From the NCBI GenBank assembly GCA_963669175.1, contig OY769902.1, positions 2,880,001 through 2,944,000 of the forward strand: a DNA stretch of 64,000 nt, given 5' to 3'. Position numbers and translations under genes: made by a program. This DNA is from a bacterium (GTDB lineage Bacteria; Electryoneota; Electryoneia; Electryoneales; Electryoneaceae). Numbering within the stretch: position 1 is the stretch's first letter; each line of letters opens with the position of its first letter. Below, one piece after another: positions 3,477-19,123 of this stretch. The notes below the pieces were generated by a model. The model ran no database searches. It was given only the letters and a program-made list of their open reading frames with translations, and was not told where the DNA came from.

Positions 3477-3785
3477 TATAGCAGTTCTCGATTTTATTCC
3501 GTCATAATAGAGATTGCCGGGAAAAGGGGACGGGATCCTTTTCCTCGCGCTTATACAGAATATTTCTGAAGTATTCCTGGAAAAGAAAACTGTCCCCTTT
3601 TCCGTGTGATTCCTGCCTGCTCGCAAGAAAAAGGGTACAGCCACCTTTCCCGGTCCATGCTCACAGCGGGAAAGCTTTGCTCCTGGAAAAGAAAACTGTC
3701 CCCTTTTTCCATAGGCTTCTTCCCTGTCACCTATGAATCGTTCGTCGGATACTATCATGACGGTTTATTTTCAAGAGTAGCTATA
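3477..3785. mobile_element. MITE-like dispersed repeat, family A copy 1 (TATAG...CTATA ends; internal CTGTCCCCTTTT motifs)
   Basis: Core 3484-3712 aligns with 53091-53320 and, inverted, with 15222-15446. Imperfect TIRs TATAGCAGTTCTCGA / TCAAGAGTAGCTATA. Confidence 0.75.
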
Positions 3786-13633: not shown

Positions 13634-14077
13634 GTGGTTGTGAAGAAATACTACTGGATGATGAAGGTGCAGGGCGTACTGCATTTTCTGCTCGCTGTTT
13701 TCCACGTTCAGTTCTGGTGGTTGTTTGAGTGGGAGAAAGACCTGCAGAACCTCACCGCGATGAACCGCAATAACGTGCAACTTCTGAACGCCGGCATGGT
13801 GGTCATGTTGTTGCTGATTGCGCTTGCCTGCCTGAGAAACACGGGCGAATTGATCACAACTCGGCTTGGCTTTGACATGCTGGTTATGATCACCCTGTTT
13901 TATCTCGTTCGCTGGGTTGGTGAATTCTTCTTCCTCGATGAAGTCAATCTGATTACCTACTTGTTCGGCGGAGTGTTTGCCCTGATGGCGGTCAGTTTCT
14001 TCTGGGCCGCGATGGGCAACCTTTCCTTCCGAAAGCAGATGAAAAAACTGGAAGGTTTAAAGGATCACAAGCGATGA
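13634..14077 (+). CDS. Hypothetical four-TM membrane protein
   Basis: RBS GAGGGGGAG, four hydrophobic segments, ATGA overlap with rbsK. Confidence 0.75.
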   Translation: MVVKKYYWMMKVQGVLHFLLAVFHVQFWWLFEWEKDLQNLTAMNRNNVQLLNAGMVVMLLLIALACLRNTGELITTRLGFDMLVMITLFYLVRWVGEFFFLDEVNLITYLFGGVFALMAVSFFWAAMGNLSFRKQMKKLEGLKDHKR

Positions 14078-15063
14078 TGTCTGAAGCCTCGGCTGCGAAT
14101 AGCTTGCCGCAAAGTGTGATAGAAAGACTGCAACGGAATCCGGACAAACCCGGACGCGTTCTGGTTCTCGGCGCGGCCGTATTGGATCGCTTGTTTTATG
14201 TCGAGAAGCTCCCGGTAGCGGGGGAGACTGCCATGTCGGACCGGATGAAAATCCTGCCCGGCGGGAAGGGCGCGAACCAGGCGCTTACGGCACGAAAAAT
14301 GGGCGCTGAAGTACGCTTTCTGTCGGCTGTGGGCGAGGATGAAGCAGCGGATTTCGTATTACAGCCATTGATTGATGCCGGAATCGATGTGTCGGGAGTG
14401 AAGCGTGTCCGTGGTGTGCATACAGCCGAAACCGTTATTTCGGTTGATACGAAAGGCGAAAACCATGTGACTTCCTGCCCCGGCGCGTATCATCGCCTTG
14501 ATCCATCCTATATAGCGTCCCAGCGGTCAGCTTTTGAATGGGCGGATTATTTCCTGGTGCAGAATGAGCTGCCACGCCCCACTGTTCTGGCTGCGATTCA
14601 ACTCGCGCTGCAACTGAAGAAAATAATCATATTCAATCCTTCGCCATTCAGGAAAAATCAGCCAGCCCCGCCAAAGGGAATCCGTGTGATGGTGCCCAAT
14701 GAACTGGAAGCGGCGGGACTGCTTGGTGTGGATGCCTATGAGGAGATCCCGGTTGATGAACGCTGGCAACAGTGGCAGACGTTTGGCGTATCGTGTGTGG
14801 TGATCACAAAAGGCAGCCATGGAGGCGAGTGGTTCGATCAGGACGGAAACCGCTATGTGGAGCCGGGAAGGTCGGTCAATGCGATTGACACAGTTGGAGC
14901 CGGGGATACGTTTGCCGGAACTTTGACTGCGCTACTTGCTGAAGGGATTGACATCGCCCACGCAATCAAGCTGGCGCATCGTGCGGCGGAACTGTCTGTG
15001 ACGGTTCGCGGGGCACAAGAAGGGATTCCCACCAGAGAACAAGTTGCGAAAGCTTTTTCATAA
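14074..15063 (+). CDS. rbsK: Ribokinase (PfkB family)
   Basis: Motifs GGKGANQA, QNE, NPSP, PNELEA and DTVGAGDTF. Confidence 0.88.
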   Translation: MMSEASAANSLPQSVIERLQRNPDKPGRVLVLGAAVLDRLFYVEKLPVAGETAMSDRMKILPGGKGANQALTARKMGAEVRFLSAVGEDEAADFVLQPLIDAGIDVSGVKRVRGVHTAETVISVDTKGENHVTSCPGAYHRLDPSYIASQRSAFEWADYFLVQNELPRPTVLAAIQLALQLKKIIIFNPSPFRKNQPAPPKGIRVMVPNELEAAGLLGVDAYEEIPVDERWQQWQTFGVSCVVITKGSHGGEWFDQDGNRYVEPGRSVNAIDTVGAGDTFAGTLTALLAEGIDIAHAIKLAHRAAELSVTVRGAQEGIPTREQVAKAFS

Positions 15064-15221
15064 TATTGAGTTGGAAGCCAACTACCTTACATATGGTAGC
15101 CATATATTATGGCCTGGTACATTATCACCTTTCAGTTTTTATGGCGATTCCTATTATTTGTTCGATATATGGTCATGTGTTATATCAGCGAAAGATCCAC
15201 TATATAGTTGGAAAAAAGGAT

Positions 15222-15446
15222 ATGGAAAAAGGGGACTGCCTCCTTTCCCTGGGGTAAAGCCTTCCCGTTGTGAACATGAACCGGGAAAGGTGGCTGTACC
15301 CTTTTCTTGAGGGCAGGCAGGAATTATACGGAAAAGGGGACAGTTTCCTGTTCCATGAATGCTTCAAGCGTATTCCGCATGAGTGCGAGGAAAAGGATCC
15401 CGTCCCCTTTTCCCGGCAATCTCTATTTTGACGGAAATAAATCGAG
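15222..15446. mobile_element. MITE-like repeat family A copy 2 (inverted); its terminal repeat is split by the IS110 element
   Basis: Reverse-complement match to 3484-3712. The end ...ATCGAG resumes as AACAACTATA at 16819. Confidence 0.75.
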
Positions 15447-15533
15447 TTCCTATGTTAAACGACAGGCGCATCAAGTCGTGTTGGAACTGCTATCTTAGCA
15501 GTATTCCATTTTTCCAACACAAGGAGAAGCGCC

Positions 15534-16595
15534 ATGTCGAAGAACCAAGTTATTGCAGCGGACCGTTCATTGTCTATAGGTCTGGATGTTGATTCGCAGA
15601 CTTCTTTCGCCGTTGTGCTCGACACCCAGACTGGTGAAGTGCTCTTTGAGAATCGGATCAAGCATGACTCAGCCGCTTGGGAACGCTTCTTTGCCCGTTT
15701 TCCCAACTGCCGCATGTGGGCGTGTTATGAAGCGGGCCTCACCGGCTTTGGCCTCTGTCGTTACCTGATCGGCCAAGGTGTTGACTGCCAGATCGCGCCG
15801 CCCAGCCAAGTTCCCAAAGGGGCGCAAGCGAAGCAGCAGAAGACCGATCATCTGGATGCCCTTACCTTGGCCCACATGTTCTGGACACCACCTCGTACCT
15901 GGGTACATGTCCCCACAGAACAGGAAGAGGCGGATCGTCAGTTGTCTCGCACCCGTGACCAGGTGATGAATGATCGCGTTCGGGTCAAAAACCGAATCAA
16001 GAGTCTGCTATTGTTTCACGGTTTACAGTCACCGTTTCCGCCGCAACGCTATTGGACAAAGGAATACCGGCGCTGGTTGCGAACGTGTGATTGTCTGGCC
16101 GCGACACGGATAGCCATTGATGTTGCTCTCGATGAGCTGGAGGCCATTGAACAGCAACTCAAGGTGATCACCAAAGCGATCAAGGCGATGAATGCGTCCG
16201 CAACGTATCGGGACCGTACCCAGCGCCTGCGCCAGGTGAAGGGAGTGGGCGAGTTGACCGTGAACGCCTTCGTGACCGAGATGTATCGTCCCGAACGCTT
16301 CGCATCCGGTAAGCAAGTCGGCGCACATCTTGGCTTGACGCCGTGTGAATGGTCAAGCGCCAACACACGCCATATGGGACACATTACCCACTGGGGACCG
16401 TCCCATCTACGAAAACTATTGGTCGAAGCTGCGTGGCGTTGGGTGCAAAAAGATCCGTATGCAAAGAAGAAATACGATGCGATCCATGCCGGGAAAACAC
16501 GGAAAGTGGCGATCGTCGCCATGGCACGAAAACTAGCCGTGATACTGTGGGCCATGCTGGTCAAAGAACAAGACTACAATCCTGCCTGCGTATAA
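15534..16595 (+). CDS. IS110-family recombinase/transposase
   Basis: RuvC-like DEDD residues (GLDVD, CYEAG, KTDHLD), GVGELT, GLTP..WSS, VAMARKL; RBS AAGGAG. Confidence 0.95.
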   Translation: MSKNQVIAADRSLSIGLDVDSQTSFAVVLDTQTGEVLFENRIKHDSAAWERFFARFPNCRMWACYEAGLTGFGLCRYLIGQGVDCQIAPPSQVPKGAQAKQQKTDHLDALTLAHMFWTPPRTWVHVPTEQEEADRQLSRTRDQVMNDRVRVKNRIKSLLLFHGLQSPFPPQRYWTKEYRRWLRTCDCLAATRIAIDVALDELEAIEQQLKVITKAIKAMNASATYRDRTQRLRQVKGVGELTVNAFVTEMYRPERFASGKQVGAHLGLTPCEWSSANTRHMGHITHWGPSHLRKLLVEAAWRWVQKDPYAKKKYDAIHAGKTRKVAIVAMARKLAVILWAMLVKEQDYNPACV

Positions 16596-16634
16596 CCCCA
16601 GCACTGCTGGCAGGTAGGTAAAGCATAGATTGTG

Positions 16635-16785
16635 ATTGAATCGTCCGATGCCATTGGGAACACGCGACCCTGGTAGTTATTCTGTTGCTTGACAACGATT
16701 CGAGTTTAGGGCGCCGCTGTTCCGTGCGAACAAAAAACTTGTGCCACGAGCACGAATAGCAGAACGGCACATGGGACGATACAAA
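16635..16785 (+). ncRNA. Predicted bridge/seek RNA of the IS110 element
   Basis: Outer stem ATCGTCC/GGACGAT. Target loop TAGTTATTCT-hairpin-TCGAG. Donor loop AACT-hairpin-ATAGCAG. Guides match the flanks and the circle junction. Confidence 0.75.
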
Positions 16786-16870
16786 GGCTCTTTACACCCT
16801 TGACTGTTTACATAGCAGAACAACTATAACTTTCTAACTTAACAACTACACAAGCTTTTTAGAGATTACC

Positions 16871-19123
16871 ATGATCACTATAGCCAAGCAAGTCGCCTTA
16901 CCAACCCTGAAGCGAGCGACCCAGGATGCCCCGCATCTGGTGGGACTCCTGTTCGAGCAGGATATCCCTGTTTTACCAGATCCTGACGAGTTTAGACTGG
17001 TATCCGTCGGCCCCCCCAAGCGTATTATCCGGCAATCACCGCGACGGATCGCGCTCGAATTTGAGCCGTTAAAACGATCTCGCACATACAAAATCAAGCT
17101 TCCTGACGGGAAAACCTATCCCTTGCTGCCGGACGGCTTGCTGGATCGCATGGTGTCCGATAAACCGTTTGGACTGACCTGGACCCGAACCGGCGCGATT
17201 CTTCGGCTCTACGCACCACGCGCACGCCGTGTAACCGCACTGTTCTACACCCACCCCGGTGAGAAACCGGCAGAAGAACTTGACCTCGAGTTCAATGAAA
17301 CGGACAACACCTGGGAAGTTGAAACGCAGTTCTTCGCCAATCCGAACCAGCGCTATTATTATGGGTATCGTGTGCTCGGCCCGGTAGGAGATGCGGATAT
17401 TTCACGGACTATTTTCGCCGATCCCTACAGTTGGGCGGTGTGTAAACGGAACAGTTGGCGACGGGAATCGCTGACCGTGGTGATGCCACGATGGGTGTAC
17501 GAACGTCAACCTGCGGCAGGCCATGTTATCATACCGCCACGCGACCTGGTGATCTATGAAAGTCATGTAAAAGACTTCAGTGTTCTGGCCGAAAGTGTGC
17601 ATCAGGATTTTCGAGGCACGTATCCCGGTGCAGTGTATGATGCCGCCGGTGCGCCCATACGCCACATCAGGGAGCTTGGCATTACGGCAATTGAATGGCT
17701 GCCGCTAGCCGATTATGACTTCTATGAATTTCCTTACAATGTGCCAGATTTGCCTGTTCTTAACACGTGGAACCCCTTTGAACGGAACCACTGGGGCTAC
17801 ATGCCGGCGTACTGGTTTGCCCCGGAGGCACGCTATGCTACCGGGCAATCCACGCAGGATGGCGACTGGATTGGTGTGGATGGCCGCCAGGTACTCGAGC
17901 TGCGGGAGATGATCCGGAAACTGCATGAGGCCGGAATTGCCGTACTCGTAGATGTGGTGTACAACCATGTCGCCCAGTACGGCCAGAACCCGATTCGCCA
18001 GGTAGATCCGTTCTACAGCCTGCGTCACTCGAAAACCGGGAGGCGTGTCGGTGATTCCGGGTGCGGGAATGATCTGGCCACCGAACGTCCCATGATGCGA
18101 CGACTGATTGTAGAATCCTTAAAGCACTGGGTGAGGTTTTACGGTGTTGACGGATTCCGTTTTGACCTGGCCGGCCTGATTGATGAAGGCACACTTGACG
18201 CTATCACTGTCGAGCTGAAAAAGGAATTACCCCAGATACATCTGATCGCCGAACCCTGGGGCGGTTATTACGATAAGCAGCGTTTCTCCAAACGTGACTG
18301 GGCGTCCTGGAATGACCTGTTCCGCGATGGCATCAAGGGCTGGGAACCGGGGAAAGTGGATGCCTTCCTGTTCGGGAAGTGGCGTAGCGGTGAGAATGAG
18401 AAAACATTGGTTCGACACGCCAGCGGGAACCTGTGGAAAGACGGCGGCCCGTTCAAACGTGAGACGCATACGGTAAACTTCCTTGCCTGCCATGATGGTT
18501 ATACCCTCGGTGACTATGTCCGCCTGGCGGGGGACTGGCTGAAAGACGTGAAACCGAAAGAGCGCGAGGACTGTTACCGGCTTCCTGAGAAAGACTGGCG
18601 TCGAATCCGGTTGGGACTCTTTGTGCTCCTGACCAGTCGTGGCCCGGCCATGATTCACCAGGGCGATGAATGGGGATTCGCAAAATGGGTGGATGCCGAT
18701 GAGGTCAGCGGGCTGAAAGAAGGCAAACTCGACCACGACAGCTATAACAAGGATACCCGCACCAACTGGTTGGATTGGGACTGGCGAGGGCGAAAACATT
18801 GCAAGACATTATATGAGTATACACAGGGATTGATCGCACTGCGGAAACATTACCCGGCGTTACGTATCGCAAGGCGTGATGATGTGGATGTGATGGCCTC
18901 GCCGCTGGAATTCGCGTTTGGTTACAGGCTCAAGGTGGGACGTGATGACCTGATGATCCTGATGAACGGTGACCAGAAAAAAGAGGCCGTCTTCAACCTG
19001 CCTCGTGGACGCTGGCTATTGCTGGCCAATCATCATCGTGTTGCGGTTCCGGATGGAATGCAGGTGGTTGAAGAAAGTGTCAGTGTTCCGTCCGTTGCTG
19101 GGGTAGTACTGTTGAAAATGTGA
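16871..19123 (+). CDS. GH13 glycogen-debranching enzyme / type I pullulanase-like
   Basis: CBM48-like RLYAPRA; motifs ADPYS, IYESHVKDF, NHWGY, DVVYNH, GFRFDLAG, AEPW and CHDG. Confidence 0.88.
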   Translation: MITIAKQVALPTLKRATQDAPHLVGLLFEQDIPVLPDPDEFRLVSVGPPKRIIRQSPRRIALEFEPLKRSRTYKIKLPDGKTYPLLPDGLLDRMVSDKPFGLTWTRTGAILRLYAPRARRVTALFYTHPGEKPAEELDLEFNETDNTWEVETQFFANPNQRYYYGYRVLGPVGDADISRTIFADPYSWAVCKRNSWRRESLTVVMPRWVYERQPAAGHVIIPPRDLVIYESHVKDFSVLAESVHQDFRGTYPGAVYDAAGAPIRHIRELGITAIEWLPLADYDFYEFPYNVPDLPVLNTWNPFERNHWGYMPAYWFAPEARYATGQSTQDGDWIGVDGRQVLELREMIRKLHEAGIAVLVDVVYNHVAQYGQNPIRQVDPFYSLRHSKTGRRVGDSGCGNDLATERPMMRRLIVESLKHWVRFYGVDGFRFDLAGLIDEGTLDAITVELKKELPQIHLIAEPWGGYYDKQRFSKRDWASWNDLFRDGIKGWEPGKVDAFLFGKWRSGENEKTLVRHASGNLWKDGGPFKRETHTVNFLACHDGYTLGDYVRLAGDWLKDVKPKEREDCYRLPEKDWRRIRLGLFVLLTSRGPAMIHQGDEWGFAKWVDADEVSGLKEGKLDHDSYNKDTRTNWLDWDWRGRKHCKTLYEYTQGLIALRKHYPALRIARRDDVDVMASPLEFAFGYRLKVGRDDLMILMNGDQKKEAVFNLPRGRWLLLANHHRVAVPDGMQVVEESVSVPSVAGVVLLKM

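Follow-up and report, generated by a model that had tools for sequence, protein, structure and literature searches.

An IS1111-type insertion sequence of Electryoneota that appears to be guided by its own 3' bridge (seek) RNA to the ends of small genomic repeats

We describe here an insertion sequence in a 64,000-nucleotide stretch of DNA, below called the window (GenBank assembly GCA_963669175.1, contig OY769902.1, positions 2,880,001 to 2,944,000, forward strand), from a bacterium of the phylum Electryoneota. The element interrupts a repeat that resembles a miniature inverted-repeat transposable element (MITE), encodes a transposase, and has at its 3' end a non-coding region in which a two-loop bridge (seek) RNA is predicted; the features of the locus are collected in Table 1. 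We read it, with a probability of about 0.9, as an active-looking IS110-family, IS1111-type element that is guided by this RNA to repeat ends. This reading is carried by the element's ends and genomic copies, the consensus of its targets, the family of its protein, the conserved structure of the RNA region, and the covariation of guides with flanking DNA at three of four half-sites.

Ends, copies and family of the element

The genome, searched as one contig of 5.45 Mb, holds 12 copies of the element that are 99-100% identical over 15447-16818 and differ at 15 of 1372 columns; all of them start TTCCTATG, finish CATAGC(A/G)G and retain an open transposase reading frame. The insertion sites of all 12 fit the pattern (T/C)CGAG|AAYARCTAT. 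Each copy is flanked as ..AG|element..(A/G)G|, and the empty sites, in which TCGAG is joined directly to AACAGCTATA (five exact instances of TCGAG-AAYARCTAT in the genome), carry the dinucleotide once, as would be expected for a core dinucleotide shared by element and target. Insertion is site-specific, with no duplication beyond this shared core, which is a trait of the IS110 family. A register of 15445-16816 is equally valid for the element in the window, since the final AG (16817-16818) is the second copy of the core. Two genomic sequencing runs give the same picture: contigs depart from the window at 15446 into AACAGCTATA (seven in one run, eight in the other), and the collapsed element contig stands at 13-14x the depth of its flanks. 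None of the contigs from these runs links the right to the left end or skips the element, bearing in mind that contigs drop rare forms.

Table 1. Features of the insertion sequence and of the repeat that it interrupts
Feature	Position in window	Strand	Details
Family-A MITE-like repeat copy, left part	15140-15446	+	about 317 bp once the element is removed; ends ...GACGGAAATAAATCGAG
Left target TCGAG	15442-15446	+	core AG at 15445-15446
Insertion sequence	15447-16818	+	1372 bp; 12 genomic copies with identical ends, unoccupied sites, read depth
Left subterminal inverted repeat CTATGTTAAAC	15450-15460	+	holds -10-like TATGTT, 15451-15456
Transposase gene	15534-16595	+	353 aa plus stop; DEDD (RuvC-like) N-terminal domain and C-terminal Tnp domain with catalytic serine
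Bridge (seek) RNA region	16634-16765	+	limits from covariance model, predicted
Target-binding loop	16664-16714	+	folds, compensatory changes, guide-flank covariation
Target loop, closing stem	GCG-A-CCCU 16664-16671 with AGGG-CGC 16708-16714	+	fold
Target loop, stem motifs	CCCTGG 16668-16673, TTAGGG 16706-16711	+	
Target loop, 5' strand UAGUUAUUCU	16674-16683	+	complementary to top-strand core and right target; DNA reads TAGTTATTCT
Target loop, GTTG..CAAC hairpin	16684-16696	+	
Target loop, 3' strand UCGAG	16700-16704	+	same as left target plus core
Donor-binding loop	16724-16770	+	fold; closing stem GUGC 16724-16727 with GCAC 16767-16770
Donor loop, 5' strand, ends AACU	16736-16739	+	
Donor loop, GTGC..GCAC hairpin	16741-16753	+	
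Donor loop, 3' strand AAUAGCAG	16755-16762	+	AUAGCAG (16756-16762) equals last 7 right-end bases including core
Right end	16800-16818	+	-35-like TTGACT 16800-16805; right subterminal inverted repeat GTTTACATAG 16806-16815; core AG 16817-16818
Right target AACAACTATA	16819-16828	+	last 10 bp of the interrupted repeat copy
Target sequence of the element, written out			TCGAGAATAACTA

Subterminal inverted repeats of the form CTATG(T)TAAAC begin at base 4 of each end and agree, with a single gap, in 10 of their 11 bases; taken alone this repeat is weak, in that 62 of 2000 shuffles reach its score, and five relatives (L017, L018, L037, L038 and L019) have a repeat at this place whose sequence is different but whose 1-nt asymmetry is the same. 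When the two ends are joined with one copy of the core, 13 nt from the right end (16806-16818) and 4 nt from the left (15447-15450) give TTGACT-N17-TATGTT. In the relatives TTGAC is followed at 13-16 nt by the AG core: the geometry of the predicted junction promoter is conserved. We also observed that the end of the interrupted repeat itself supplies a -35-like hexamer (window 15428-15456), which reads TTGACG here and ATGACG or ATGTCG in other copies, and which lies exactly 17 nt upstream of TATGTT, the spacing of the circle junction; integrated copies in such ends might express the transposase without excision.

An initial annotation of this locus had proposed that removal of 15447-16818 restores a repeat end, had pointed to other copies as a check on the ends and flanks, and had written out the junction. 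The 12 copies, the unoccupied sites and the genomic contigs all agree with the first proposal; the copies share their ends and the site pattern given above without exception; the spacing arithmetic of the junction is correct; and every coordinate and motif was located exactly, by reading of the sequence and with a motif script.

The transposase matches PF01548 (5.3e-18) and PF02371 (8e-20), and scores 247.8 bits against the NCBIfam model NF033542 (IS110 family RNA-guided transposase; cutoff 140). Five residues, D18, E66, D105, D108 and S275, are invariant in an alignment of four relatives (47% identity); the catalytic residues of IS621 are D11, E60, D102, D105 and S241 (PMC11208158). The segment GLTPCEWSSA aligns with GLTPRRYESG of the IS621 transposase, a protein whose structure is known, with WSS opposite YES, and KTDHLDA stands opposite KTDTVDA. 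The C-terminal domain alone aligns to IS621 (phmmer, 39.7 bits, E 3.2e-9), and the IS5075 protein is 25.1% identical over residues 100-349 (tblastn, 76 bits, E 2e-12), two scores that, being from different programs, cannot be set against each other. The closest plasmid-borne proteins are 33-34% identical.

Within the family, layout and subterminal inverted repeats are the features that separate the IS1111 from the IS110 group (PMC11187229; PMC11208160). The longer non-coding region, which carries the RNA, lies downstream of the gene here (223 nt 3' of it, against 87 nt 5'); the subterminal inverted repeats fall within the range of the group, 7-17 bp; and in the RNA 16674-16683, complementary to the top strand, lies 5' of 16700-16704, complementary to the bottom strand, the guide order given for IS1111 elements in PMC11187229. 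The group motif GL-P----S(t)G is present as GLTPCEWSSA, its final G replaced by A, and the protein has 353 aa as compared with 330-350 aa for the group; occasional TA variants of this motif in the IS1111 group are described in PMC11187229. On these features the element is best classed as an IS110-family member with the IS1111-type layout.

The repeat interrupted in the window belongs to a family, A, that has 93 matches to its internal motif and 75 recognisable right ends in the genome, with typical lengths of about 225 or 330 bp; an end for comparison, TATAGCAGTTCTCGAT, lies at 3477 in the window. Its terminal inverted repeats are imperfect, TATAGCGATTCCCATTATTATTCCGTCAT matching the reverse complement of ...ATGACGGAATAAAATCGAGAACAGCTATA at 23 of 29 bases by manual count, and we class the family as MITE-like. 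Seven element copies lie in family A, 10 bp inside its right end, three in a family B, and two elsewhere. Family B has a different body with 18-bp tandem units and a terminus similar to that of family A, and the two families may share a mobilising transposase. The body of family B is a GC-rich hairpin with a variable number of 18-bp GAATCAGCAA(A/T)ACTTTC units, and its end reads TTTCGGG-AACCCCTATA (examples at C1:1687151, 3525622, 4232969 and 3078133 in G000). A long, near-perfect hairpin occupies 15227-15305 within the family-A copy; matches there to a microRNA model of Rfam on both strands (28.2 and 25.8 bits, against a gathering threshold of 88) were set aside as an artefact of this hairpin.

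Predicted bridge RNA structure, guide-flank covariation and site choice

Both loops of the predicted RNA are contained in minimum-energy folds of the 3' end, as the initial annotation had them. For comparison we used an alignment of 39 relatives from which the window sequence was left out. RNAalifold predicted no pairs on this alignment; a structure of four helices was therefore written from one sequence, L076, and its pairs were then counted. Pairing cells amount to 75.1%, versus 31-43% with partners slid by 1-3 columns, a control that is somewhat favourable to the structure since this was taken from L076. Changes on both sides are found in 19 of the 23 pairs, the outcome of a covariation check that the initial annotation had named, and the observed values were matched by 0 of 500 shuffles for four measures and by 4 of 500 for a fifth. 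A covariance model of the 39 relatives (R1) has a sole match in the 64 kb of the window, at 16634-16765 on the plus strand (52 bits, E 1.2e-12); genome-wide it has 12 matches, one in each element copy and none free-standing. Protein family, 3' layout and the R1 match all support the earlier assignment to the IS110/IS1111 bridge (seek) RNA architecture. For 93% of IS1111 elements, a bridge RNA in the right end has been predicted (PMC11208160).

In a phylum set of 79 species genomes, relatives at E up to 1e-30 are present in five other genomes, the best 48% identical; a scan of genome contigs with the single protein gave only three loci, and a scan of metagenomes with a four-protein alignment gave 57. 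After removal of RNA regions more than 92% alike, 40 elements were left, that of the window included. The left end is AG|TTCCTAT in a close group (the window, L017, L018, L019, L037, L038, L084 and L039) and AG|ATAACATGAAGGCCGTGG in a group further removed; the right end TTGAC-N-ATAGCAG| is common to both. The left ends of the distant relatives were located from the 3' strand of the target loop together with the conserved left-end motif. Three other routes to these ends failed: the best matches of a right-subterminal-repeat probe were to the coding YEAG motif, pairwise loss of homology was limited by contig ends, and the 10-nt reverse complement of the donor-loop 5' strand, used as a probe, gave 0 of 27 matches of at least 9/10 in a sensible place.

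In line with published usage, we name the guides by the transposase strand, so that 16674-16683 is the right and 16700-16704 the left target guide, and 16736-16739 the right and 16756-16762 the left donor guide. The initial annotation had the positions right and the left and right labels wrong, having named them on the strand opposite the transposase. Its central claim on the two target guides is supported by their covariation with the flanks. For the right target guide, the longest exact complementary run averages 7.06 nt to an element's own core and right flank versus 4.90 nt to those of others (32 elements with at least 10 nt of flank), or 7.78 versus 6.22 with G-U pairs allowed, and the best match mostly falls at the same RNA offset across elements. 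For the left target guide, the mean match is 4.61 nt to the own flank versus 2.09 nt to others', for the 28 elements (of 40) in which a left end could be identified; two elements score zero. In each of these three comparisons 0 of 20000 permutations reach the observed sum, counts that we take as strong indications and not as probabilities, since the relatives are not independent and some share a target; this reservation belongs with those gathered in the next section.

In the donor loop, the hairpin and the G-N-AUAGCAG motif are kept in 40 of 42 regex matches. Two metagenome relatives depart from this, L058 with AUAGGAA and L075 with AUAGGAG as the donor-loop 3' strand, in step with their right ends, which read CATAGGAA and CATAGGAG, respectively. 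L058 also has AA, not AG, before its left end, which points to the use of a different core dinucleotide by this element. Taken together, the covariation of guides and flanks supports pairing at three of the four half-sites.

Another line of evidence is the choice of sites within the genome. When sites are scored by mismatches to the 13-mer specified by both target guides, both of the two sites with no mismatch are occupied, followed by 4 of 12 at one mismatch, 5 of 107 at two and 1 of 1278 at three. Among family-A ends, classed by mismatches in the right target, 3 of 5 are occupied at zero or one, 4 of 20 at two, and 0 of 50 at three or more; the commonest family-A end, AACAGCAATA, is present in 16 copies with none occupied.

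The copies also differ at 16817: this base, with which the core opens at the right junction, is A in eight of them and G in the other four. The four G copies are spread over three element sublineages, as defined by the other variable columns, so the base is not inherited within the element. G is found at all three family-B insertions and at one orphan site; A is found at all seven family-A insertions and at the other orphan. Unoccupied family-B ends read TCGGG|AAC or TTGGG|AAT in seven of eight cases, family-A ends read TCGAG|AAC, and the left junction is AG in all 12 copies. The simplest reading, drawn from four sites, has the donor base entering the left junction at GG targets and the target base staying at the right one; on the strand that reads CT, the core would then stay with the arm 5' of it. 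Single-strand exchange just 3' of the CT core, the place of the top-strand cut in IS621 (between T9 and position 10; PMC11208158), predicts this very outcome of AG on the left and GG on the right, provided that the exchanged strand is the one whose information is retained. Alternatively, the three family-B ends may already have read TCGAG before insertion. Position 16739, the base of AACU that faces the core base, is C instead of U in three copies, with no clear correlation with 16817.

A sister species in the same genus (G033) offers a further comparison. The interior of the element is missing from its assembly, which contains 15 right-end junctions (among loci L101-L118), 88-96% identical over the last 42-51 nt and most of them at contig edges. 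The flank on the right reads AATTACTATA in 11 of the 15 and AATTACTA in 13, the latter being one base from AATAACTA, which the guide in the window specifies; of two junctions on the left, one has TTCAAG| and the other TTCGAG|. The G033 element, about 95% identical in its right end, thus inserts at AATTACTATA and not at AATAACTATA, and its guide is predicted to read UAGUAAUUCU instead of UAGUUAUUCU; if this is true, it would be a case of natural single-base retargeting. An unoccupied orthologous site was sought in G033, where the flanks had no DNA-level match. One fragment in that genome (L099, G033:C308:1-120) runs from the donor loop onward, stops about 55 nt before the normal end, and continues as ...GATCGG|TTCCTATTGTGCAAC, which resembles a left end from another relative, distinct from the first; the insertions may be nested or in tandem.

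Points of doubt, rival readings and a proposed pathway

Several results count against an RNA that guides the element, and we set them out together. In fold energy the 223-nt end does not stand out (z = -1.05, with 32 of 200 shuffles folding as well), so the fold alone proves nothing; the case for more than chance rests on the covariance-model match, the permutation tests of guides against flanks, and the site occupancy. The model R1 gives no real match at the loci of IS5075, IS5708 and a Rhodococcus relative (best 6.8 and 4.8 bits), and an Rfam scan of 14000-18000 (E up to 1) gives nothing within the element; homology to the bridge and seek RNAs that have been studied therefore rests on architecture and not on sequence. 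Metatranscriptome contigs from one run yield only two 151-nt pieces of the element, both inside the transposase gene, in a kind of data that cannot show transcripts. At eight of the 12 occupied sites a C stands where an A of the guide needs T, an A-C mismatch inside the 10-nt guide, from which it follows that one internal mismatch is tolerated. Finally, the guide for the left end matches over 4 nt here (AACU against AGTT), and among the relatives at least four contiguous complementary bases are found in 10 of 27, with no run of three or more in 15 of 27. The 4-nt donor match of the initial annotation is therefore not upheld as a guide, and one of the four half-sites is left unexplained by RNA pairing. 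This donor irregularity is not unexpected, because the donor-binding bases lie in a multiloop in many IS1111 elements (Durrant et al., PMC11208160).

The weak left end is what sustains the rival reading that survives best, which we nonetheless consider unlikely: that the RNA, as a seek RNA, guides the choice of target only, that the transposase finds both ends of the element by way of the subterminal inverted repeats, and that AUAGCAG and AACU are structural or protein-binding. It would explain why the left-end match is so short here and absent in 15 of 27 relatives, and it fits the short purified seekRNAs of Siddiquee et al. (PMC11187229), which are described by their target matches, as well as the compensating changes by which the subterminal inverted repeats are kept. 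AUAGCAG is near-invariant, so that a guide function for it is tested by only two lineages (L058 and L075); in both of these, however, the right end is different and the RNA differs likewise. Moreover, AUAGCAG lies in an internal loop closed by a stem, like the target loop, and complementarity to the donor is reported for predicted IS1111 bridge RNAs, often in the multiloop (PMC11208160).

That the loop-flank matches arise by chance, and that the transposase protein itself reads the target, we regard as highly improbable. The matches are indeed short (5 and 10 nt), and the longer is imperfect at eight of 12 sites, but both strands of the loop covary with their flanks across many targets (32 and 28 elements), beyond every permutation in each case, and they hold the same place in a structure that is backed by compensatory changes. 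As for hitch-hiking, in which a repeat already carrying the element was copied with no site-specific insertion, it could account for the 10 of 12 copies that lie in repeat ends and yet is excluded by the repeat sequence beside the element, which varies from copy to copy around a near-constant element; the insertions fall in two repeat families and at two sites outside repeats, and occupancy tracks complementarity to the guide rather than the abundance of a repeat (the 16 empty copies of AACAGCAATA), so that we give it almost no credence.

Bearing these points in mind, we prefer guidance by the element's own RNA, and we hypothesize a pathway modelled on IS621 and ISEc11. The element would leave as a circle, its right and left ends meeting at one AG, and this junction would build the promoter TTGACT-N17-TATGTT; a complex of transposase and RNA would then recombine the circle junction with TCGAG|AAYARCTAT at the AG, leaving no target duplication beyond the shared core. 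Production of the RNA, its binding by the transposase, the circle, the activity of the promoter and the chemistry are put forward by analogy with those two elements. The preferred sites are the terminal sequence common to two MITE-like families, and the element consequently lives mostly inside the terminal repeat of another mobile element. The initial annotation had spoken of a recombinase-guide pair that parasitises another mobile element; this stands in so far as 10 of the 12 copies lie in repeat ends, and needs amending in that the target is an end common to two families, two copies lie elsewhere, and the principle is known.

A more specific version of this preferred reading combines three proposals: that RNA pairing accounts for the two target arms and the right end, three half-sites out of four, and that the left end is recognised otherwise, for example through the subterminal inverted repeat; that core bases are inherited at GG sites as set out above; and that the G033 element was retargeted by one base. 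As a whole we hold it tentatively, and would rather doubt than assert it.

At the locus itself, the element and its repeat lie between a gene for a PfkB-family sugar kinase (14074-15063) and a gene for an alpha-amylase-family protein with CBM48 (16871-19123), both on the plus strand. The end of the element is 52 nt upstream of the start codon of the latter gene, the expression of which it could influence.

Significance and comparison with known systems

The literature already covers RNA-guided recombination by IS110/IS1111 elements, the RNA at the right end of IS1111-type elements, guides in reversed order, promoters at the junction and an AG/CT core (PMC11208160; PMC11187229; PMC11208158; PMC12288879). 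The novelty claimed in the initial annotation was in this respect overstated: the element is not a new principle, it is a fresh example of the RNA-guided IS110/IS1111 kind, and our findings leave the known principle unchanged. Among the papers listed by one full-text literature search, none describes an IS110-type element that targets MITE ends, which does not prove absence; published supplementary lists of predicted bridge RNAs for ISfinder elements might include close relatives.

What the element offers, in a host outside the usual model bacteria, is a well-resolved natural example: its 12 copies are nearly identical, its occupied and unoccupied sites form a defined pool, and guides and flanks can be read side by side in 39 diverged relatives. 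Occupancy gives a natural measure of how much mispairing is allowed: insertion withstands one internal A-C mismatch but not three mismatches in the right target. The model R1, to which nothing in Rfam is comparable, could be used to annotate such RNAs in metagenomes. Of more specialist concern are the vestigial guide for the left end, the inheritance of core bases and the one-base shift of target in G033; the first two of these bear on the differences between IS1111-type elements and IS621.

IS4321 and IS5075 reportedly insert in the terminal inverted repeat of Tn21-family transposons (Partridge and Hall 2003). Like them, the element of the window is a DEDD element that has subterminal inverted repeats and sits at a set place within the terminal inverted repeat of a different mobile element. 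It differs in that the host there is a Tn21-family transposon and here a small non-coding repeat; in addition, the IS5075 transposase is only 25.1% identical over the residues compared, and R1 finds nothing in the IS5075 locus.

A likeness of another kind exists with ISPpu9 and ISPpu10 of Pseudomonas putida, IS110-family elements that insert in genomic REP repeats and recombine at AG (PMC12288879; 10.64898/2026.03.19.712850). ISPpu9, unlike the present element, is placed by PMC12288879 in the IS110 group, without inverted repeats, and the small RNA linked to it is described there as existing also in free copies, whereas all 12 RNA matches here lie inside element copies.

With IS621 (Durrant et al. 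2024, PMC11208160; Hiraizumi et al. 2024, PMC11208158) the element shares the two-loop logic of the bridge RNA, with the core dinucleotide within the pairings; the strand copied by the long target guide has CT as its core, and DEDD residues and a catalytic serine are common to both. In contrast to IS621, the RNA here lies at the opposite end, and its guides follow each other in the reverse order when read along the transposase strand; the element also has long subterminal repeats, and the guide for one donor half-site is vestigial. Parallels in layout are offered by ISEc11, ISPa11, ISKpn4 and ISPst6, IS1111-family elements for which a seekRNA has been shown experimentally (Siddiquee et al. 2024, PMC11187229). 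As described in that paper, they too have a long non-coding region downstream of the gene, an RNA segment complementary to the top strand 5' of that complementary to the bottom strand, with matches that overlap at the insertion point, and a promoter at the circle junction, a likeness by description to the one predicted here.

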